DNA of 40,000 nt, taken from positions 3,405,607 through 3,445,606 of the forward strand of contig NZ_AP024895.1 in assembly GCF_024347055.1 (NCBI RefSeq). The letters are read 5' to 3'. The position numbers and the translations under genes are program-made. Positions 1,868 through 19,618 of the stretch are shown in pieces. This DNA is from Vibrio porteresiae DSM 19223 (lineage in GTDB: Bacteria; Pseudomonadota; Gammaproteobacteria; Enterobacterales; Vibrionaceae). The notes beneath the pieces were generated by a model, which did not search any database, was not told where the DNA came from, and was given only the letters and a program-made list of their open reading frames with translations. Position 1 is the first letter of the stretch. Each line of letters begins with the position of its first letter.

Positions 1868-2209
1868 TTATCCTGCTTTTTGATACTCAATTTTGTTGAT
1901 GAACCATACTTTCTTGCCTGAAGGGGTTTCGACTTCGACTTCATCATCCACTTCGCGTTTTAGCAACGCACGCGCCATCGGCGAGTCGATAGAGATATAG
2001 TTTTTTACTTCACCATAGATCTCTTCTGGTCCAACAATCCGAAAACGCTTGGTTTCCCCTTCTTCGTTTTCAATTTCGACCCACGCGCCAAAAAAGACTT
2101 TGCCATCTTGCTGTGGTGAATAATCGACCACTTGAACTTCAGGGAGAAATTTACGTAAGAAGCGTACACGGCGATCAATTTGACGTAGTAAGCGCTTATT
2201 GTATTGATA
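1868..2209 (-). pseudogene. greB: 3' fragment of the disrupted resident greB (codon 50 to stop)
   Basis: The minus-strand frame reads YQYNKRLLRQIDRRVRFLRKFLPEVQVVDYSPQQDGKVFFGAWVEIENEEG...IEYQKAG*. This is collinear with E. coli GreB from 'ENAD|YQYNKK'. No start codon or N-terminal coiled-coil is attached. The reading frame breaks at 2209/2210. Confidence 0.9.
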
Positions 2210-2392
2210 TTAGTTCTACTCTTAAGACCGTACTAATAGGTGCAATACTACTTTTAAATATCTGATATAGACAGTTCTGATTTCAAAGTTCAGTCATTTG
2301 AATTAGTGAGAACCATCAACTATATACTAATAAGTATATTAAGGAATCCTTAATTTTTATGAAGGTAATGTCACTTAGTTATAGGAGTTAGT

Positions 2393-2542
2393 ATGTCAAA
2401 ATCAAAATTCTATCCTAGCTATCAAGAAGCATGTGAAGCTGCAAGAAAGTTGAAGATTAAGACGGCGAAGGAGTACAAAAATCTTTCAGGCAAGACTGAT
2501 CGCGACACCAACGATTCAACGTCACCGAAATCAAGTGAGTAA
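2393..2542 (+). CDS. 49-aa ORF carrying a partial copy of the repeat motif found in the 1325-aa recombinase
   Basis: The ORF is below the track threshold, so I translated it myself: MSKSKFYPSYQEACEAARKLKIKTAKEYKNLSGKTDRDTNDSTSPKSSE. AGGAG lies about 8 nt upstream. The stop is 2 nt before the next ATG (2545). 'FYPSYQEACEAARKL.I.TAKEY' parallels 'FYSTYAEASEAAIGLGIQSAPEY'. Confidence 0.4.
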   Translation: MSKSKFYPSYQEACEAARKLKIKTAKEYKNLSGKTDRDTNDSTSPKSSE

Positions 2543-2544
2543 GA

Positions 2545-3840
2545 ATGGCTTATACACTTAAAAGAAGAGTTTCTTATAAGGCTAGTGCGGCGTCTTTATC
2601 ACATAACCTTCCTGCCATCTTCACTAAGAGTGGCTTGCTGATTTCTCATTTGAGGTACTTATATTCTAACCGAGGTAAATCACCATCTTGGATGGAGAGA
2701 AATACCTTTGCGGTAGAGCTTCTTTTAAAGTTTATAGAGCGCCAAGTATCAAACTTCTCATCAGCTACAGAGTTGCTCAGAGCGTTTGTTGAAGCATTAC
2801 AGTTTGGAACAATTCAAGATGGGCAAGACAGCTCTGGGTTGTTCTGGTCGACTCGCAGAAATGAAGACGTAAATGTTCTTCTTCACCATATTACGGATTA
2901 TTGCGACTACCTCGATACAGTTTATGGAACTGACTTGCCCAAGCTAAATCCCTTAAGGAAAGCAACTCATGCAGAAGAGCGTTTGCAATGGTGTGCTTAC
3001 TACAGGAGGCACAGTCGTAGCTTTCTGAATCATTTAGCTAATCCATCCCGACAGCAATTCTCAGTTGTTAGAATGATTCGAGGGCCTGAGAGGCACCTAG
3101 TCGATATCGAAGCAGTATATCGCTTTCCAGAAAACCGAATTGAAGACTTACTGCTACATGGTTTTGTTTTTCCGTCAGGAGAACCGGATTATGCTAGCCA
3201 GTTGATTGTAATGTTGATGCATTTCGGTGGGTTGAGATTGTCGGAGTGTTTTCATATATATGTCCATGATGTGCATCTAGACCAGAAATCAGGCTCAGCT
3301 CTCATATCGGTTTTTCATCCTAGTGATGGACAGTCGCCAGATGAACGTTTCTGTAAACGAAATGAATACTTGGCTACCAAATACCGACTAAATCCAAGGA
3401 ATGAGTATTCGAGAAGCCATAGACTATATGCTGGCTGGAAAGGACCTTTGCTTACAAATCGCAACCTATCCTTTGATGTGATGTTTTATCCAGCTAGTAA
3501 AGCTGTTGAATTTACTCTGGTACTACAAAAGTACCTTGCGACTAAACCCTCTTCAGAATCTCCGTTCCTTTTTGTTAACTCAAAAGGAAATCCAGAGAGT
3601 AAAAAAAATTTCTATCAGAAGCATAATAGAGCCGTTCGTCGAATTGGACTAGAACCATCCAAGTCATTAGGGACAACCCCACACGCTCATCGCCATTCCT
3701 ACGGCTATAGATTAAGCCAAGGAGGTTTTTCTCAGCTAGAGATTCAAAAAGCGATGCACCATAAAAGCCCTGAGAGTTGCTTGGTTTATTTGAAACCTTC
3801 TGACGATGAGGTTCGTCGTCAAATGAGAGACACTCACTAA
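2545..3840 (+). CDS. Tyrosine recombinase/integrase (431 aa), first of the trio (TnpA-like)
   Basis: Tyrosine recombinase catalytic signatures are present: 'GGLRLSEC' (box I Arg), 'HAHRHSYGYRL' (H-x-x-R) and 'CLVYLKPS' (nucleophile Tyr). The stop overlaps the next start (TAATG at 3838-3842). Confidence 0.85.
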   Translation: MAYTLKRRVSYKASAASLSHNLPAIFTKSGLLISHLRYLYSNRGKSPSWMERNTFAVELLLKFIERQVSNFSSATELLRAFVEALQFGTIQDGQDSSGLFWSTRRNEDVNVLLHHITDYCDYLDTVYGTDLPKLNPLRKATHAEERLQWCAYYRRHSRSFLNHLANPSRQQFSVVRMIRGPERHLVDIEAVYRFPENRIEDLLLHGFVFPSGEPDYASQLIVMLMHFGGLRLSECFHIYVHDVHLDQKSGSALISVFHPSDGQSPDERFCKRNEYLATKYRLNPRNEYSRSHRLYAGWKGPLLTNRNLSFDVMFYPASKAVEFTLVLQKYLATKPSSESPFLFVNSKGNPESKKNFYQKHNRAVRRIGLEPSKSLGTTPHAHRHSYGYRLSQGGFSQLEIQKAMHHKSPESCLVYLKPSDDEVRRQMRDTH

Positions 3841-6800
3841 TGAAAAAGTTTTACGCAACTATAAACCAAGCAAGTAAAGCGGCGATAAGATTGGGCATTC
3901 AATCGGCACAAGAATATAAGCAGCGTTACAAAGAAGATGAGCATCTTCCCGCGAATCCAAATACGCTTTATGCCGCTGACTGGGTTGATTGGTTTAGTTT
4001 TCTGGATAAAGCGAAGCGGTCTTTATATTCGACATACGCAGAGGCCAGCGAAGCCGCGATAGGATTGGGCATTCAATCGGCGCCAGAATATCAGCAGTAT
4101 TACAAAAAAGATGAGCGTCTTCCCGCGAATCCAAATACGCTTTATGCCGCTAACTGGGTTGATTGGTTTAGTTTTCTGGATAAAGCGAAGCGGTCTTTCT
4201 ATTCGACATACGCAGAGGCCAGCGAAGCCGCGATAGGATTGGGCATTCAATCAGCGCCAGAATATCAGCAGTATTACAAAAAAGATGAGCGTCTTCCCGC
4301 GAGTCCAAATATGCTTTATGCCGCTGACTGGGTTGATTGGTTTAGTTTTCTGGATAAAGCGAAGCGGTCTTTATATTCGACATACGCAGAGGCCAGCGAA
4401 GCTGCGATAGGATTGGGCATTCAATCGTTCCTAGAATATAAGCAGCGTTACAAAGAAGATGAGCGTCTTCCCGCGAGTCCAAATACGCTTTATGCCGCTG
4501 ACTGGGTTGATTGGTTTAGTTTTCTGGATAAAGCGAAGCGGTCTTTATATTCGACATACGCAGAGGCCAGCGAAGCTGCGATAGGATTGGGCATTCAATC
4601 GTTACTAGAATATAAGCAGCGTTACAAAGAAGATGAGCGTCTTCCCGCGAGTCCAAATCAGGTTTATGCTGCTGACTGGGTTGATTGGTTTAGTTTTCTG
4701 GATAAAGATAAGCGGTCTTTCTATTCGACATACGCAGAGGCCAGCGAAGCAGCAATAGGGCTGGGTATTCAATCGTCGCCAGAATATAAGCAGCGTTACA
4801 AAGAAGATGAATGTCTTCCCGCAAATCCAAATCAAATTTATGCCGCTGACTGGGTTGATTGGTTTAGTTTTCTGGATAAAGCGCAGCGGTCTCTCTATTC
4901 GACATACGCAGAGGCAAGCGAAGCAGCGATAGGATTGGGCATTCAATCGTCCCATGAATATAAGCAGCGTTACAAAGAAGATGAACGTCTTCCCGCAAAT
5001 CCAAGTCAGGTTTATGCCGCTGACTGGGTTGATTGGATTCACTTCTTATTGCCCAGAGATATATCTAATCTAAAACAGTTCAAAACAGCATGTGCGATTC
5101 TAAGAATCAAAGACTCATCTCAATACAGAGTTACACAAAAGAACTATCCTCAATTACCCTCCAAGCCTGAAAAAAGAATACCTGACTGGAGCAATTGGTA
5201 TGACGCTCTCGATATACCAAGGCTTTATGGATATGACGAACTAGCAGCTTTGGTTCAAAGCAAAGGAGTTTGCAGCCTTGCAGAGTATGCGAAACTTCGA
5301 GCTGAATCCAATGATCCTAGAATGCCAGCAAAACCAGAAGAGAATTATCAAGGAAAGGGTTGGACTAACACCTTTGACTTCTGGGGAGTTAAACGACCGT
5401 ATCAAGTGAAATACTTTACTGATGAATGGTCTTTGTGGGCGGCGACGATAAAAGAGTTTCTCAAGTCTGCACGTGGCGGAGATACCAAAGCGAAAGACTT
5501 ATGTGAATTTGTTCGTGAATACATTGAGCCAAATGGTTTTGAAACATCCCCGTTGGAGTTTCTCACACGTGGCTCGACAAACATTCAACCAATGCTGAAT
5601 CTGTTTGAACAAGTTCCAGTGACACGAAGAAAAAAATGGGCGTTTTCAATCAATGAGTTCTTAGATTGGATTATCTCTAGTTATCTTATTTTGGAAGACA
5701 CAGAGACCGGAGAAATTACTCACATCAAGGACGCCAAAAACCCATTTAGTCACATTAATTTTAATGGAGAAACTGCGCCTCAAGTTGTCAATGAAACAGA
5801 TAAGATGGCTCTGCCTTATCAATATGTAAAAGCAGGGCGAGAGTGGATATTTCCATTAGACTCCGTAGAGAAAAAGCTAAATTATTGGGATTTAGCTCAT
5901 TTGCATCCTTTTTCATCAGACTGGGTGCAGATCAACGATAGCTCTCTCCTAGATAAAAACGACCCTGATTGCGTTTTCAAAGTTGAAAATGGGAAAACCT
6001 ATCTTTGGTTTCCAACATACTGGACCTATACGTACTCACTCATGCAACTCCCTGCAAGAGGGATGCAAATCGTCTATTGCGACTCTGGGGAGGCAGATCA
6101 AGAACTCGCCGACTTTAAGAACAATAAAGTCGTTTGGAAGAAAAATAGGACTATGTTAGCTGGCCTAACCAATCGTCAGAGCATGGTGAGTAAGTCAGGG
6201 CAAGGAGAGTTCGGTGTCCATTATACATCCAACAAAACTAAGTTTGATGGTTCAGGCTACACTATTCCCTTCATGCCCATAGAACTGGCATATTGGTTGG
6301 TAAAGCTTAGAAAGTGGCAACAGAAATATAATCCACTAAAGGAGCCAACGAAATGGCTTGATTGTGAGCGCACCAATCTAAACGAAGTTCAGCGTAAGCA
6401 AAAAGGGGCGAATTGCTTTTTATTCCGCGACTATCTAGAAAAAGAGCCAGGCACATTTAGTGGCAGACTAGCGACACGGCTTGCTGCTGCACTATATTTT
6501 TCTGCCAAGAATGATATTACAACGGCTACCTACAAAGGATTAAAATACAATCAATCGATGAAAGAATTGGAAAATAGTCAAACGATACCACTTTCACGCT
6601 TTAAATCCCCTTACACTCCACACTCAATGCGCGTCAGTTTGATCAATGCTTACGCGTATGAGTTCGGCATTCCTTTGGAAGTCATAATGAAATTGGTCGG
6701 CCATTCCAGCATCATAATGACCATCTACTATACCAAGAGCGATAAAACAGGCAGCAACTTACGAGAGAAAATGGAGTTGGGTGAAAAGGAGGCGATGAGC

Positions 6801-7817
6801 AAAGCAACGCAAACGCTCAAATCCTTTGTGGAACAGCAGAGAATTGAAGAAGTTAAATCACAGTTAGTAGGTTCATCTTTGGATCTACTAAGTTCACTCG
6901 ACAATGCTCGCCCGGCCTCTAGCTATTTATGGAAAGACTTTGGTATCTGCCCTGTAGGAGGTGCTTTTTGTTCAGAGGGGGGCATTCCTGTAGCTACCAA
7001 AGCCAACATATATCACTCTGTACCAGCAGGTTATTTGGGTGAGCAGAACTGTTTTCAGTGTCGATTTTTTATTACCGGCCCTGCTTTTTTGGTTGGACTT
7101 ACTGCCATATTCAATGAGATAAGCCTAGCCGTAAACACGCAATCTATACGTTACACTTCTCTTGAGCAGGAGATTGATAATATTGCAGAAAAGATAGATG
7201 TCATTGATCACCAACTTTACAAAATAAAAGCGGATAGCTCAGAGAAGTCTGCTCTGGAGTCTGATAGACGTAAGTTAGTTGGACAACGTATGCACTTGAA
7301 CTCGGCAATTGAAACACGAGCGAAGAAGCTAGATTTGTACCTTTCAGACATGAACGCAATTCACCGACATATACATAATTGTCAAACTCTTATGCGTAAC
7401 CCTAAAGAAAACACGGAGAATCACTATCAGCTTATTGTTCCGCATGAATTCACATTAGGTGTAGAGTTGGATGAAGTAAGCAATTTTCATCAACTATCAG
7501 AAGTGTGTTCGAATGCAGAGCTGTACCACAGCTGTAGCGACGACTTAGCGGTAACAAGACGCTCCCAAATGATCGACAAAATGATGGTCGAAAACGGTAT
7601 TCAGCCGCAACTTTTTTTACTGTCAGAAGCAGAGCAACTCTTAGTGGGGAACCAGTTAACAGAGTTGATGCTGGCAAGGTTGAAAGGCTGGGAGAACGTC
7701 GACCGTCTTATGGATGGGAGTTTGACTTTAAAGGACCTATCGATAGATAACAATTTTGATGAAAAGACTATTCGAGAATTGTTTGAGAAGTCGAAACCAC
7801 TAAAAAGGATCGGTTAG
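3840..7817 (+). CDS. Giant tyrosine recombinase (1325 aa) with N-terminal 58-aa repeat array, a Cys-rich segment and a coiled-coil C-terminus (TnpB-like)
   Basis: 'YTPHSMRVSLINAY' (H-x-x-R) and 'VGHSSIIMTIYYTKSD' (His and Tyr) indicate a tyrosine recombinase core at about aa 910-965. A Cys cluster follows: 'FGICPVGGAFCSEGG...EQNCFQCRFF'. There are seven near-identical N-terminal repeats and two degenerate ones. Confidence 0.85.
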   Translation: MKKFYATINQASKAAIRLGIQSAQEYKQRYKEDEHLPANPNTLYAADWVDWFSFLDKAKRSLYSTYAEASEAAIGLGIQSAPEYQQYYKKDERLPANPNTLYAANWVDWFSFLDKAKRSFYSTYAEASEAAIGLGIQSAPEYQQYYKKDERLPASPNMLYAADWVDWFSFLDKAKRSLYSTYAEASEAAIGLGIQSFLEYKQRYKEDERLPASPNTLYAADWVDWFSFLDKAKRSLYSTYAEASEAAIGLGIQSLLEYKQRYKEDERLPASPNQVYAADWVDWFSFLDKDKRSFYSTYAEASEAAIGLGIQSSPEYKQRYKEDECLPANPNQIYAADWVDWFSFLDKAQRSLYSTYAEASEAAIGLGIQSSHEYKQRYKEDERLPANPSQVYAADWVDWIHFLLPRDISNLKQFKTACAILRIKDSSQYRVTQKNYPQLPSKPEKRIPDWSNWYDALDIPRLYGYDELAALVQSKGVCSLAEYAKLRAESNDPRMPAKPEENYQGKGWTNTFDFWGVKRPYQVKYFTDEWSLWAATIKEFLKSARGGDTKAKDLCEFVREYIEPNGFETSPLEFLTRGSTNIQPMLNLFEQVPVTRRKKWAFSINEFLDWIISSYLILEDTETGEITHIKDAKNPFSHINFNGETAPQVVNETDKMALPYQYVKAGREWIFPLDSVEKKLNYWDLAHLHPFSSDWVQINDSSLLDKNDPDCVFKVENGKTYLWFPTYWTYTYSLMQLPARGMQIVYCDSGEADQELADFKNNKVVWKKNRTMLAGLTNRQSMVSKSGQGEFGVHYTSNKTKFDGSGYTIPFMPIELAYWLVKLRKWQQKYNPLKEPTKWLDCERTNLNEVQRKQKGANCFLFRDYLEKEPGTFSGRLATRLAAALYFSAKNDITTATYKGLKYNQSMKELENSQTIPLSRFKSPYTPHSMRVSLINAYAYEFGIPLEVIMKLVGHSSIIMTIYYTKSDKTGSNLREKMELGEKEAMSKATQTLKSFVEQQRIEEVKSQLVGSSLDLLSSLDNARPASSYLWKDFGICPVGGAFCSEGGIPVATKANIYHSVPAGYLGEQNCFQCRFFITGPAFLVGLTAIFNEISLAVNTQSIRYTSLEQEIDNIAEKIDVIDHQLYKIKADSSEKSALESDRRKLVGQRMHLNSAIETRAKKLDLYLSDMNAIHRHIHNCQTLMRNPKENTENHYQLIVPHEFTLGVELDEVSNFHQLSEVCSNAELYHSCSDDLAVTRRSQMIDKMMVENGIQPQLFLLSEAEQLLVGNQLTELMLARLKGWENVDRLMDGSLTLKDLSIDNNFDEKTIRELFEKSKPLKRIG
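3849..5040 (+). repeat. Seven tandem 174-bp (58-aa) in-frame coding repeats
   Basis: The period was measured from recurring 'ctttatattcgacatacgcagaggccagcgaagc' at 4021, 4195, 4369 and onward. The unit is (F/L)YSTYAEASEAAIGLGIQS.(P/L)EY(K/Q)Q(R/Y)YK(E/K)DERLPA(N/S)PN..YAA(D/N)WVDWFSFLDKAKRS. The copies are very similar at the DNA level. Confidence 0.95.
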
Positions 7818-7818
7818 C

Positions 7819-8442
7819 ATGTCAACAATTACTCCTGATCAAGTTCTGAATCAACTAAAAAAGAAAGCCTCACCTCGAGTACAAAACTCACTAGAGGCAG
7901 TGTTCACCATATGCAAGGAACAACAAGAACGTGGATTGAATGACTTTAGCTATTCCACGATAGCCCGCCTTGGAAAAGGGCGAGGAGTTCCTGCGGCACA
8001 AAGTATCCGAAACAAAACCGGTGAATCGTACCGAACCTTAATTGAAAGCTTCAACTCTTCAACAAAAGACCAACCAAAGCCAGCACGAAACACCTCAAAA
8101 GGTAAGATGCACGCTTGGATAGATGAATTAGAAGACCCAGTAGTTAAACTTCAAGCCAACATTCTCTATGCGCAAAAAAAAGAAGCAGAACGACTACTTA
8201 ATGAAATAGTGCCAATCAACCAGGTCATTGAAGTGTTCGATAACGTCGATGTCTCTGTTGCGTCGATTAAGCTCACTGAGCTGGAAAGAAGCGCATTGGA
8301 GTACCTCATTTCTAGTGAGTTTTTACGTAGACATCAATTGGAGGTTGGAAAAAATGGCAGTATAGTTTCGAGTGATACTCAAAAGTCTTTTTTCCGTGTT
8401 GCAACCATCGATGCAATCAAAAAGGCGCTAAAAAACTTATAG
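7819..8442 (+). CDS. 207-aa recombinase-operon accessory protein (TnpC-like position)
   Basis: It starts 2 nt after the stop of the 1325-aa gene and has no catalytic motif I can see. Position and size fit the third gene of Tn554-type trios. From memory, RefSeq names similar triplets 'gamma-mobile-trio' GmtX/Y/Z; this is unverified. Confidence 0.55.
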   Translation: MSTITPDQVLNQLKKKASPRVQNSLEAVFTICKEQQERGLNDFSYSTIARLGKGRGVPAAQSIRNKTGESYRTLIESFNSSTKDQPKPARNTSKGKMHAWIDELEDPVVKLQANILYAQKKEAERLLNEIVPINQVIEVFDNVDVSVASIKLTELERSALEYLISSEFLRRHQLEVGKNGSIVSSDTQKSFFRVATIDAIKKALKNL

Positions 8443-8460
8443 ATAACTTGGACTGTAGAA

Positions 8461-8937
8461 GTGAAAACAAAACTAATCACCAGAGAAGGTTACAACAAAC
8501 TGAAAGCTGAACATGACCACTTATGGAATGAAAAACGACCTGAAATTACTAAAATTGTAACTTGGGCTGCAAGCTTAGGTGACCGCTCTGAGAATGCTGA
8601 TTACACCTTCAATAAGCGTTTACTTCGCCAGATAGATAGGCGAGTCCGGTTTCTAAGAAAGTTTTTACCTGAAGTAACCGTTGTTGATTACTCTCCTCAA
8701 CAAGAAGGTAAAGTGTTTTTCGGAGCCTGGGTCGAAATTGAAAATGAATCCGGTGATGTGATGAAATTTCGTATTGTTGGTCCAGAAGAAATCTATGGGG
8801 GCGCTAAAAATTATATATCTATTGATTCCCCAATGGCGCGAGCGCTCTTGAAGAAAGAAGTTGATGACGAGTTTACCGTTCAGACTCCTGATGGGGATAA
8901 AGAATGGTTTATCAACTCAATTACATACGAAAAATAA
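8461..8937 (+). CDS. greB: Complete island-borne transcript cleavage factor GreB (158 aa, GTG start)
   Basis: It is full-length and collinear with E. coli GreB: 'TREGYNKLKAEHDHLWNEKRPEITKIVTWAASLGDRSENADY...DYSPQQEGKVFFGAWVEIEN...ISIDSPMARALLKKEV'. It lies 18 nt downstream of the trio, on the same strand. It differs from the resident greB at many synonymous sites. Confidence 0.9.
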   Translation: MKTKLITREGYNKLKAEHDHLWNEKRPEITKIVTWAASLGDRSENADYTFNKRLLRQIDRRVRFLRKFLPEVTVVDYSPQQEGKVFFGAWVEIENESGDVMKFRIVGPEEIYGGAKNYISIDSPMARALLKKEVDDEFTVQTPDGDKEWFINSITYEK

Positions 8938-8996
8938 ACTTGATTGGTTAATCTCGAATACAATCCAAAGTGCTGAAATAGAGCTGTTTATTGCTA

Positions 8997-16972: not shown

Positions 16973-17344
16973 ATGGAGTGTGTCTTAAAATCGCCTAAGA
17001 TTAGGTTGGCTGTGACATTATTTCTCACGATTGTGATAGGAGTTTTTTCTAGCTTATTTGCTACAGAAATAACACCAAATGGGATTGTTGAATGGAATAG
17101 AACATTTAAGACGTATTCTTTTTGGATATTGATAATATTAAGTATCATTTGGTTATGGATACATATTAATTTGATGGAGTATGATAATAGTATATTGGCT
17201 TTTTCTGATGATGAATATTGTAAGGCTTACATGAGAAAAGCTCAGCTTGAAGCATATGTATTAAATATTAAAGAAAATCCCAAAGAAGTAAATACTATGG
17301 AGTTGAATGAATTTAAATCAAAGTTGGAAGGATATAAAAAATGA
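16973..17344 (+). CDS. Two-TM membrane protein with a C-terminal amphipathic helix (123 aa), first gene of the AT-rich operon
   Basis: AGGAG lies about 12 nt upstream. The TM helices are 'LAVTLFLTIVIGVFSSLFA' and 'YSFWILIILSIIWLWIHI'. The stop overlaps the next start (ATGA at 17341-17344). Confidence 0.6.
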   Translation: MECVLKSPKIRLAVTLFLTIVIGVFSSLFATEITPNGIVEWNRTFKTYSFWILIILSIIWLWIHINLMEYDNSILAFSDDEYCKAYMRKAQLEAYVLNIKENPKEVNTMELNEFKSKLEGYKK

Positions 17345-17607
17345 GTGTTTTGGTTTCCAGTAAATTTGCCGATGAGTTACGTGGTTATAAACTAGATTCG
17401 CAAGTTTCTGAAATTTTCAGTTTATTAGAAAACATGGATTATAATAGTCCTTCGCAAATGCATAACGTAAAGATTATAGACGGTGAAAAACAGTCAATAT
17501 ATGTTTTAAAACATAAAAACTGGAGGGTTTTCTTTACTAAACAAGAAAATGACATTGTATTATTAAGCATCACAGATAGTAAAGTGATAAGACATTTCAA
17601 TGGATAA
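17341..17607 (+). CDS. Small RelE/ParE-fold-like protein (88 aa)
   Basis: 'IYVLKHKNWRVFFTKQENDIVLLSITD' resembles the RelE/ParE core pattern (l)YrlRvGdyRviY.i.d..i.il.i. It is preceded by a helical segment. It is translationally coupled to the upstream membrane protein rather than to a soluble antitoxin. Confidence 0.45.
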   Translation: MSVLVSSKFADELRGYKLDSQVSEIFSLLENMDYNSPSQMHNVKIIDGEKQSIYVLKHKNWRVFFTKQENDIVLLSITDSKVIRHFNG

Positions 17608-17713
17608 ATATAGTATTCTTGGTTTTAAGTTACTTAATTATTGCAATGTTGGTATTTATGCACCATTGAATTATACGTGATAGGGAACATCCTTGAATGG
17701 AGTAGCATTGAAT

Positions 17714-18127
17714 ATGGAAAATAAAAAAGTAAAATGGCTGATTTACACTGTTCTAGTGGGGCTGATTCCTATCCTATCAAGGATATTTGTCTGGAGTGTC
17801 ACTGAGGTTGGGGTAGTCAGTTTAATAATGCCAGCAGACTTTATTGCTTTTGGTTTAATTTTACATATTTCTAATATCAATGAAATTGAACATCTAACAG
17901 ATGATGAAAAATCGTGGAAAACTATTCAAAATGGAACCTCTATAGCCTTCATTGCTTTTTATAGCGTTTTATTTTCATTGATAATGATAAGTGAGAGTAT
18001 TCCAAACTTGATAGACATGGGAGCAATCAAATTTTGCACTATAGGTTTATCTGTGGTCTCTTTTTTAATTAGTTTTTCTGTATTCCATAGAATTTCGAAA
18101 ATTGCAGCTAATGAGGTAACAGTATAA
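17714..18127 (+). CDS. Four-TM membrane protein (about 138 aa)
   Basis: The helices are 'WLIYTVLVGLIPILSRIFVW', 'VVSLIMPADFIAFGLILHI', 'SIAFIAFYSVLFSLIMI' and 'FCTIGLSVVSFLISFSVF'. The ATG at 17714 has GGAG 11 nt upstream; the track starts at a TTG at 17693. Confidence 0.6.
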   Translation: MENKKVKWLIYTVLVGLIPILSRIFVWSVTEVGVVSLIMPADFIAFGLILHISNINEIEHLTDDEKSWKTIQNGTSIAFIAFYSVLFSLIMISESIPNLIDMGAIKFCTIGLSVVSFLISFSVFHRISKIAANEVTV

Positions 18128-18258
18128 TGGTTACTACAATTATAATTGCATTAACTTTGGTTATGGTCTTTGTTGGTATTTCCACTGTTGTCTGGTCAAT
18201 AATTAATACAAGAAATAAATTTTACGAAGAATACAAGGCAAGGAATAAAAATAAATGA
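18127..18258 (+). CDS. 43-aa single-TM peptide
   Basis: The ORF is below the track threshold, so I translated it myself: MVTTIIIALTLVMVFVGISTVVWSIINTRNKFYEEYKARNKNK. Its start overlaps the upstream stop (TAATG). Its stop overlaps the downstream start (ATGA at 18255-18258). This double coupling argues that it is translated. Confidence 0.5.
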   Translation: MVTTIIIALTLVMVFVGISTVVWSIINTRNKFYEEYKARNKNK

Positions 18259-19196
18259 TAAAGAATTTTATATACTTAGACGAAGATAAAATGTATTCAT
18301 TATCATCTCAAATATTTGAAGGGATAACTGAATATGTTTTAAATGAAAGCTCTTCAGATAATCAAGAAAGTGAGACTCAAAAAGGCCCAGTAGGAAGTGG
18401 TAAGGTTTTAGCTGATGTAATTATTTCAAGTAGTAAGGCAACTGAGAAAAAGTTTTTTCATGACTACTCATTTACATTATTTGAAAATCATCTAATGGAG
18501 CAAGGCCGGGTTTTAGATCTAACAAGTGCAACACTTTCTTTAGAAGATCTTAAAGCATCCATTACTGACTTTTCTTTTATAAAAACAAAAGCTAAGTCAA
18601 CATTTAATGATGTGAATAAAATAACTGAGTTATTTTCCGAGTTTAATACGATTGGTGAAGCACTAGCACATATGGGAGCATTTTCCCGAATTAACGAACT
18701 AACTTCCGAGCTTGCATTGTTGAAGAAGCAAACACCAGATAGGAATAAAAGATCCCAACTCGAAGCTGAGTATAAGAAACTAACTAACCTCAAAGAATTA
18801 GCTAAAGCTGGCAGCCTTTATCAAGATCAAAAGTTTTTAGATAACTTAAGTTTATTAACTAAATATGGTTTTTCGGATCAATTTGAAATAACGCAACCTA
18901 TCGGCGAGGCACTTTTTACTTCATGTTTAAAACGTGATTTTCTGAGGGAGAGTGAGGATATATTAGTTAAAAAATATTCTCGAAAAACTGAAAAGAAAGT
19001 TGTTATCTTCGGAATAATATCTCAAGCATTTTCAGGTAATGAAATGGAATTAGATGAAAAAGGTAAAGATTATTCAAACATGAAGGCTGCACTGTTAAAC
19101 CTTGTCGATCATTTAACTAACATTGAACATTCTATTTCCGGAAAGCAAGAAAATGAAGTCGTCATTGATCCCATAGCCGTCTACTTTGAAGTGTAA
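18255..19196 (+). CDS. 313-aa soluble protein of unknown function, last gene of the AT-rich operon
   Basis: It is a long ORF in about 30% GC DNA with no TM segment. The N-terminus is 'MIKNFIYLDEDKMYSLSSQIFEGI' and the middle is coiled-coil-like ('LTSELALLKKQTPDRNKRSQLEAEYKKLTNLKELAK'). I recognise no catalytic motif. Confidence 0.7.
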   Translation: MIKNFIYLDEDKMYSLSSQIFEGITEYVLNESSSDNQESETQKGPVGSGKVLADVIISSSKATEKKFFHDYSFTLFENHLMEQGRVLDLTSATLSLEDLKASITDFSFIKTKAKSTFNDVNKITELFSEFNTIGEALAHMGAFSRINELTSELALLKKQTPDRNKRSQLEAEYKKLTNLKELAKAGSLYQDQKFLDNLSLLTKYGFSDQFEITQPIGEALFTSCLKRDFLRESEDILVKKYSRKTEKKVVIFGIISQAFSGNEMELDEKGKDYSNMKAALLNLVDHLTNIEHSISGKQENEVVIDPIAVYFEV

Positions 19197-19267
19197 TGCC
19201 TATAACAACCGATCAATGTATCAGCATACTTTTCCTAACCTGACAGAAACTCTTTAATGCGATTGTT

Positions 19268-19291
19268 CTAAACGGTTTCTGTCCATTTCCG
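19268..19291 (+). repeat. Cassette-boundary repeat, copy C (core only)
   Basis: 'ctaaacggtttctgtccatttccg' shares the core AAACG(n)GTTTCTGTCCAyTTyCG with copy B. Confidence 0.55.
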
Positions 19292-19379
19292 AGTTAAATT
19301 ATGGATTTTCTGCCTGTGATCACCAAGCGATTCTGTCGTACCTTGGCCGTGGTTAATTGTGTTTTGTTTAAGTGAAAAT

Positions 19380-19417
19380 AGTACATATGAATAGTATACA
19401 TACTATTCATATGTACT
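19380..19417. repeat. 38-bp perfect palindrome about 55 bp inside the island right end
   Basis: AGTACATATGAATAGTAT-AC-ATACTATTCATATGTACT has 18-bp arms that are exact reverse complements. Confidence 0.9.
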
Positions 19418-19453
19418 GTTTAATTAGTTGATTAGGTATATTTAGTATGTTTT

Positions 19454-19618
19454 TTATACTTCTAAAGCCATATCTGCATTTTCAGAGCGATCTCCTAGAC
19501 TGGCCGCCCAAGTCACTATTTTGGTGACTTCAGGACGCTGCTCATTCCACAGGTAATCGTGTTCTTCTTTGAGTTTATTGTAGCCCTCACGGGTGATCAG
19601 TTTGGTTTTCACTGACAT
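19454..19618 (-). pseudogene. greB: 5' fragment of the disrupted resident greB (codons 1-49 fused to 5 island-derived codons)
   Basis: The minus strand reads MSVKTKLITREGYNKLKEEHDYLWNEQRPEVTKIVTWAASLGDRSENAD, then MALEV* read from island DNA. The sub-threshold ORF was translated by me. Confidence 0.9.

Follow-up and report, generated by a model that had tools for sequence, protein, structure and literature searches.

A greB-inserted Gamma-Mobile-Trio island of Vibrio porteresiae carries a diverged greB as a conserved partner of its recombinase trio

Elements that carry a copy of the gene they disrupt

Gamma-Mobile-Trio (GMT) islands were defined by Mahata et al. (bioRxiv 10.1101/2023.03.28.534373) as elements with trio-dependent circularisation, site-specific replicative insertion and plasmid-mediated transfer, the circularisation and insertion experiments having been carried out only with VPaI-6 and with the island of V. 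parahaemolyticus strain 04.2548. According to the same study, a GMT island that sits within a gene "often" brings along a homologue of that gene, "possibly to compensate"; its Dataset S2 contains 67 rows with greB as the intragenic site, and in its Dataset S1 GreB comes after GmtX in Acinetobacter, Pseudomonas, Vibrio and Rheinheimera. Because both compensation and greB insertions are present in that work, the core of the finding reported here is already known. In its text and supplements we found no discussion of crossover-adjacent allele differences, of selection on the carried copy or of island relics, and our literature search found no paper on greB-targeting islands by name, nor on the crossover codons of the carried copy.

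A second described system is the recA mobile element (RME) of Vibrio cholerae S24, which splits recA, carries a foreign recA and excises as a circle (Rapa et al. 2015, PMC4405046). Its authors argued that disruption of the resident recA avoids mixed RecA filaments (PMC4405046), an argument that has no obvious counterpart for the monomeric GreB. Like the RME, the island described below sits in a conserved housekeeping gene and holds a complete, phylogenetically foreign copy of that gene, whereas the RME relies on a phage-type integrase and a XerS-like recombinase instead of the GMT trio, has its recA at the far end under its own LexA-regulated promoter, and possesses 9-bp terminal inverted repeats.

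Elements that target tRNA genes, dusA or prfC (e.g. SXT) rebuild the end of the target gene and in this way neutralise the insertion damage. In these elements the replacement terminus is found at the junction only, whereas the present island has a whole second gene, in opposite orientation and 6 kb inside. Tn7, Mu and Tn3 display target immunity, in which proteins bound at the element ends repel nearby insertions. The likeness to these transposons lies in an element being spared from self-insertion, for which the putative means here would be sequence divergence of the carried target copy.

The island and the split host gene

We analysed a window of 40,000 nt from Vibrio porteresiae DSM 19223, which is identical to GenBank record CP138203.1 and contains the following features (window coordinates):

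1868..2209, minus strand: 3′ fragment of the host greB, codons 48 to stop, adjoining ompR (tblastn; contiguous with the intact allele of locus L035)
2210..19471, no strand: GMT genomic island, 17,262 bp (blastn of the empty-site locus L035)
2545..3840, plus strand: gmtY, tyrosine recombinase (NCBIfam NF040693, 507.4 bits, cutoff 340; Pfam Phage_integrase)
3840..7817, plus strand: gmtZ, large integrase-like (NCBIfam NF047926, 726.9 bits, cutoff 600; Pfam Integrase_2 and seven INT_rpt)
7819..8442, plus strand: gmtX (NCBIfam NF040692, 223.3 bits, cutoff 40)
8443..8460, plus strand: gmtX-greB spacer, 18 nt, with a GGA Shine-Dalgarno-like core (sequence; no terminator-like site predicted)
8461..8937, plus strand: island-borne greB, GTG start, 158 aa, GreB equivalog
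8602..8610, plus strand: codons 48-50 of the island greB, TAC ACC TTC (Y-T-F), homologous to host TAT CAA TAC (direct reading)
8997..19196, no strand: cargo comprising an XRE-type HTH gene, VspR-like, a ResIII fragment, an M78 peptidase with P4 'beta'-like, P4 cII-like, RexA/RexB and DUF6414 (Pfam/PADLOC; genes called in L015)
19472..19612, minus strand: 5′ fragment of the host greB, codons 1-47 from GTG (tblastn; sequence; intact allele)

GmtY, GmtZ and GmtX all score above their NCBIfam equivalog cutoffs, which identifies the element as a GMT island. The trio is contiguous and co-oriented (2545-8442) and is located at the 5′ border of the island, the left end of which is at 2210. Two metagenome contigs (L035 and L036), the flanks of which are 98.8-99.4% identical to the window, lack the island and have an intact greB with an empty site; the protein encoded there (P0066) is 99% identical to the reconstructed host GreB. 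In blastn, positions 1-6147 of L035 map to window 25618-19472 and positions 6148-8356 to window 2209-1, the break GAT|TAT being clean, with neither target duplication nor loss.

The host greB is split at codon 47|48. With the island GreB as query, tblastn matched residues 48-158 to 2209..1877 on the minus strand (81% identity) and residues 1-47 to 19612..19472, and the latter piece adjoins a GGDEF gene and tex. The GTG of the 5′ fragment has an ATG 6 nt ahead of it, at 19618, and the fragment runs into the island for 5 codons before it meets a stop. At the crossover the host site reads GCAGAT|TATCAATACAAT, and the island greB allele reads GCTGAT|TACACCTTCAAT at the homologous point. The crossover is situated just 3′ of the invariant GDRSENAD catalytic-loop codons, and GmtY, GmtZ and GmtX together would direct site-specific insertion of the island to the boundary of codons 47 and 48 in the chromosomal greB, thereby destroying the gene.

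The cargo is of the defence type according to PADLOC and Pfam (RexA, RexB, P4 beta-like, cII-like and a capP-like M78 peptidase) and is typical of the GMT family. We classify the element, from its gene content and borders, as a GMT defence island of ~17 kb inserted in greB. It shares with the published greB-inserted GMT islands the same trio at the 5′ border, the intragenic greB site, greB after gmtX and the defence cargo, and no difference in kind was found. The arrangement is thus real, had been described correctly, and is an ordinary member of the published class.

Several further observations concern the island genes and termini. A tandem array (window 3877-5036; 6.7 copies of a 174-nt unit, 93% matching) occupies the 5′ part of gmtZ and encodes the INT_rpt units. 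Among relatives GmtZ varies in length, with 922 aa in Acinetobacter (published dataset), 1325 aa here and 1383 aa in Shewanella. A 163-aa ORF at 9832-10323 contains the N-terminal ResIII/DEAD helicase motifs only and is probably a decayed cargo gene; the P. aeruginosa plasmid L041 has a full-length DEAD/DEAH helicase gene upstream of gmtY, together with an HTH gene and a hypothetical gene. At both island termini (2210-2254 and 19427-19471, read inward) TTAG is present near the tip and TACTAW ~20-27 nt inward. The related islands L001 and L028 share this layout and L027 shares the TTAG motif, while the right tip starts with AT in the window vs TA in L001, L027 and L028.

A sigma-70-like match extends across the left junction (window 2198-2225, minus strand; TTAAGA, 16 nt, TACAAT; 9 of 12), with its -35 element in the island and its -10 element provided by the host codons CAA TAC AAT, and is aimed at the orphan greB 3′ fragment. 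This match is weak, and the promoter scan gave fewer sites than shuffled sequence. The naive site contains a single 6-nt inverted pair, ATCAAT/ATTGAT, both arms of which are 3′ of the crossover (+1 and +30), with none bracketing the crossover. Mahata et al. reported a naive site with an inverted repeat of at least 5 nt for 238 of 366 islands, and the inverted-repeat column is blank in several of their greB rows.

The orientation of the native greB relative to ompR and tex differs among genomes, with two arrangements found in a comparison covering the window, L001, L027, L028, L029, L031 and L035. In the window's species, as in V. fluvialis and Idiomarinaceae, greB and ompR point the same way; the two genes diverge in V. 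proteolyticus, in Shewanella and in the hosts of L027 and L028. The insertion orientation of the island relative to greB is identical in both native arrangements.

The carried greB and its place behind gmtX

A full-length GreB of 158 aa, starting with GTG 18 nt past the trio, had been proposed in the preliminary description and was confirmed by profile searches, in which it scored 247.6 bits (cutoff 188) for NF002506, the NCBIfam GreB equivalog, and 235.4 bits (cutoff 171) for TIGR01461. Both Pfam Gre domains (PF03449 and PF01272) are present, the protein aligns end to end with E. coli GreB (PDB 2P4V, E 3e-68), and this alignment demonstrates that the catalytic acidic residues D41 and E44 at the coiled-coil tip are retained (...SLGDRSENADY...). 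For comparison, the two split pieces of the host greB were joined in silico. The island and host proteins are identical at 133 of 158 residues (84%), close to the roughly 80% previously estimated by eye, and the DNA identity is 72%, with synonymous differences in 74 codons, a dN of 0.133 and saturated dS. Together with a separate clade in the neighbour-joining (NJ) tree, this divergence agrees with the earlier reading of the gene as a xenologue and not a recent duplicate. The position had been read correctly as well: the host pieces are on the minus strand, the island copy is on the plus strand, and at 6.25 kb inside the island (given earlier as about 6 kb) the inverted gene is not a junction hybrid.

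Relatives were collected by scans with GmtX, which yielded six genome and four metagenome loci, and by look-ups of GreB homologues, which yielded two Shewanella islands; more copies of the window's own island were also found. The hosts comprise Vibrio, Shewanella and Rheinheimera genomes as well as Chromatiaceae and Pseudobdellovibrionaceae MAGs, and the GmtX identities range from 59 to 92%. In this survey greB was kept in every one of the 13 distinct related islands, directly after gmtX and on the same strand. Where the left junction was available (8 of 8), the host greB piece starts at codon 48, inverted, just 5′ of gmtY. The gmtX-greB spacer, measured in 12 islands, is 18 nt long in 9, 21 nt in 2 and 22 nt in 1, and the greB start is a non-ATG codon (GTG or TTG) in 12/12; the thirteenth island (L032) was counted for gene order and is not among the 12 spacer measurements. 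Judged by this gene order and by its divergence from the host gene, the island greB is a diverged xenologue and a conserved partner of the recombinase trio.

The island L032 from Shewanella has the trio and greB as in L031 and is without the greB 3′ fragment at its left end (L032:2740-2830); an IS with an rve transposase is nearby, and either the flank has been rearranged or the site of insertion is a secondary one.

In the window gmtX stops at 8442, so that the spacer to greB is exactly 18 nt. The island-type spacer reads ATAACTTGGAYTGTAGAA. No terminator was predicted between gmtX and greB, and the promoter scan of the operon found no convincing promoter, with fewer sites than in shuffled sequence. 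The spacers of 18-22 nt, the non-ATG starts, the GGA motif and the lack of a predicted terminator fit co-transcription of greB with the trio, perhaps with translational coupling, and in view of the 18-nt spacer and the weak GTG start the island greB is most likely on the same transcript as the trio. We also considered a GmtX-GreB read-through fusion, as the two genes share a reading frame in the window, but a run of six codons without a stop would arise by chance in ~75% of cases; this candidate was rejected because L006 is out of frame with an extra stop and all three stop codons are used among the islands.

Among the island greB copies, dN/dS is 0.02-0.07 wherever dS was computable, many pairs being saturated at synonymous sites. 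The island copies are under strong purifying selection, and the combination of low dN/dS and saturated dS indicates that greB was kept protein-coding through long divergence and complete cargo turnover. These observations bear on a rival reading, in which a single imprecise excision brought in greB and the gene persists as a neutral passenger that is still to be lost. Capture of adjacent host DNA by mobile elements is known, and the island copy is related to Vibrio greB, but retention in all 13 islands despite saturated synonymous divergence and complete cargo turnover, the low dN/dS values, and a location inverted vs the target and 6 kb from the junction make a passenger hardly credible.

When codons 49-50 were masked, the NJ tree split the island copies into two groups, a Vibrio-type and a Shewanella/Rheinheimera-type clade, and placed neither with the disrupted host genes. 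The island greB is a separate lineage that moves with the trio as its conserved fourth gene and is not acquired anew in each host. Transcribed together with the trio, it would supply the lost transcript-cleavage factor and make insertion cheap for the cell. Compensation for the inactivated gene, as put forward in the preliminary description, is well supported by comparative data, namely the presence in 13/13 islands, the constrained protein evolution and the retained catalytic residues, and we infer from sequence comparison both expression of the carried gene and complementation by it. In E. coli, greB is dispensable, so a fitness need for compensation is an assumption.

Two plasmids, Halomonas pTHAF12_a (L040) and the P. 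aeruginosa megaplasmid pAFM-PA19-3158 (L041), also contain gmtY-gmtZ-gmtX-greB, at 40-42% GmtX identity. There, greB has an ATG start, spacers of 7 and 30 nt and the canonical YQY motif. No greB fragment was found within 8 kb of the module on either plasmid, which indicates that the island greB copy is kept even there. Plasmid relatives above 60% GmtX identity were not found, and a scan of viral contigs with the GmtX alignment gave no relatives. These plasmid modules without a nearby greB fragment, together with the tight coupling of greB to gmtX (18-22 nt) across lineages at only 59% GmtX identity, would agree with a greB that serves the island itself, e.g. by tuning RNA polymerase for expression of the trio or the cargo. 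However, the island GreB is a canonical equivalog with intact catalytic residues under strong purifying selection, the module was seen solely in greB-associated GMT lineages, the published survey links carried homologues to whichever gene is disrupted and not to greB specifically, and the plasmid copies may be islands in transit. We therefore consider such a role improbable.

Crossover codons and a probable island relic

The codons around the insertion point had been quoted exactly, with GCT GAT TAC ACC TTC in the island copy and GCA GAT TAT CAA TAC in the intact host allele (L035), and it had been suggested that this altered core may make the carried copy immune to insertion by a second element. 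At this point the carried GreB of the 7 islands in the Vibrio lineage reads ENADY-TF-NKR, and that of the 6 islands in a second lineage ENADY-KE-NKR. Of the disrupted host alleles, five read YQY; YHY was seen once, in the Vibrio lineage, and YQF and YTY once each, both in the second lineage. We defined fixed differences as positions, within 60 nt at the crossover, at which all targets and all island copies have no nucleotide in common. Such differences were found at +4, +5, +8 and +24 in the Vibrio lineage and at +7, +9, +22 and +24 in the second lineage, the nearest ones in both being 4-9 nt 3′ of the crossover, in a comparison that comprises two or three independent island lineages only. There were none in the 30 nt 5′ of the crossover, where the Vibrio lineage alone is comparable (4 targets with flank). 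DNA identity is not locally reduced at the crossover, with 22 of 30 nt identical there vs 15-26 elsewhere; what is informative is solely the pattern of fixed differences.

Among the published naive sites, which include QY, HY, IY and TY types, TF- or KE-type strings are absent on either strand. In the Pseudomonas lineage, the published target reads AEY-IY-GKK vs ADY-QY-NKK in the megaplasmid copy. For VPaI-6, Mahata et al. reported, from a construct with a mutated spacer, that the spacer of the site matters for insertion. These observations agree with a carried copy that does not serve as a substrate.

KE-type greB was also seen in assemblies labelled non-gammaproteobacterial, namely a Pseudobdellovibrionaceae MAG (L003) with the whole gmtZ-gmtX-greB module, and Galbibacter sp. 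(P0192/P0195). This may reflect binning contamination or wide transfer.

The part of the immunity claim that holds is the difference of the island copies from every disrupted allele and from every published naive site; the part that does not is the exclusiveness of the altered codons, as TF and KE are native alleles too. TF is native in V. fluvialis and V. mediterranei, and the usual tex-greB-ompR locus holds it both in V. fluvialis and in the Vibrio of record CP018308.1. Loci without GMT genes have HF in a marine gammaproteobacterium and KE in Idiomarinaceae, V. cholerae GreB entries read TY, and T49 and F50 each occur singly among the second-lineage targets. TF was therefore rejected as an island-only signature. 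Given T49 and F50 among the targets and TF, HF and KE at native loci, the altered codons are no proof of immunity, and the native TF and KE alleles mean that ancestry can explain the crossover difference as well as selection can. Self-immunity has only correlative support from the aligned alleles. The carried copy, differing 3′ of the crossover from the attacked alleles, is likely refractory to insertion and would probably be a poor substrate for a further one, whereas selection for such refractoriness is unproven.

Residues 49 and 50 (window 8605-8610) are the sole highly variable positions (1.70 and 1.51 bits) in the near-invariant block W35-D59, with T/K/H/Q/I at 49 and F/E/Y at 50 among 291 GreB sequences, a sample biased by its three search queries. 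The tolerance of variation that this implies, the native TF, HF, KE and TY alleles, the canonical QY of the more distant GMT-greB modules and the nesting of the island TF clade within native TF Vibrio sequences in the NJ tree all speak for inherited ancestry, in which greB was taken from a lineage that was already TF (or KE) and resistance is incidental or absent. Against this stand the differences of two island lineages from all observed targets at the crossover-adjacent codons, with none in the comparable 30 nt on the 5′ side, and the absence of TF or KE strings from the published naive sites; moreover, a replicative element with a good target in its own cargo would be expected to self-insert, and some filtering for non-targets would follow. 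We regard pure ancestry as a serious contender that falls somewhat short of being probable. A greB that acts as the conserved fourth gene of a greB-targeting GMT island, replacing the lost function and probably being itself a poor target for re-insertion, is the explanation we hold with high confidence.

A metagenomic Vibrio scaffold without GMT genes (L039) has the gene order tex(-), RimB-like(+), greB(+), ompR(+). Its greB is 93% identical to the window's island GreB, has a GTG start and the island orientation (L039:9861-10486, cf. window 8321-8937), and is preceded by an island-type 18-nt spacer, AATAACTTGGATTACAGCA, collinear with which is a 48-nt remnant of the gmtX 3′ end (81% identity, blastn E 9e-7). 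In occupied loci that share these flanks (L001, L027 and L028) the order is tex(-), RimB-like(+), greB-3′(-), [gmtYZX(+), greB(+), cargo], greB-5′(-), ompR(+), and the layout of L039 is the one expected if deletions removed all but the island greB. By these traces L039 is a probable island relic, and it suggests that the greB of a decayed GMT island can take the place of the host gene for good.

A subset of V. parahaemolyticus (P0003; L011-L014) has the gene order and orientation of L039, a TTG start and an allele that stands beside the island clade. A gmtX remnant is absent from the loci L011-L014, and a recent island origin of this TF allele was rejected, with a DNA identity of just 77-82% and no shared flanks. 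The TF allele of V. cyclitrophicus (L037 and L038), considered as a further candidate relic, is in one of the two native orientations, and no gmtX remnant was found beside it.

A more far-reaching, tentative view, which we consider rather doubtful, is that codons 49-50 are a site of conflict between islands and hosts, the carried copies having been recoded against their own recombinases and a refractory allele having been left behind by decayed islands as the sole greB of the cell. The relic locus L039 speaks for this view. If true, such a conflict would help to explain the hypervariability of these two codons within an invariant block of 25 residues, and would explain the island-type alleles at chromosomal loci in the V. 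parahaemolyticus subset.

The spare copy would allow a mobile element to land harmlessly in the most conserved stretch of a housekeeping gene, and to do so in many hosts. The principle is not new, having been described for the V. cholerae recA element and later for GMT islands. Our additions are the gmtX-greB order in 13/13 islands, the purifying selection, the fixed differences adjacent to the crossover and the relic locus, of which the crossover-adjacent differences and the relic constitute the residual value of this example. A permanent exchange of greB through decayed islands, if true, would make greB a misleading phylogenetic marker in Vibrionaceae.
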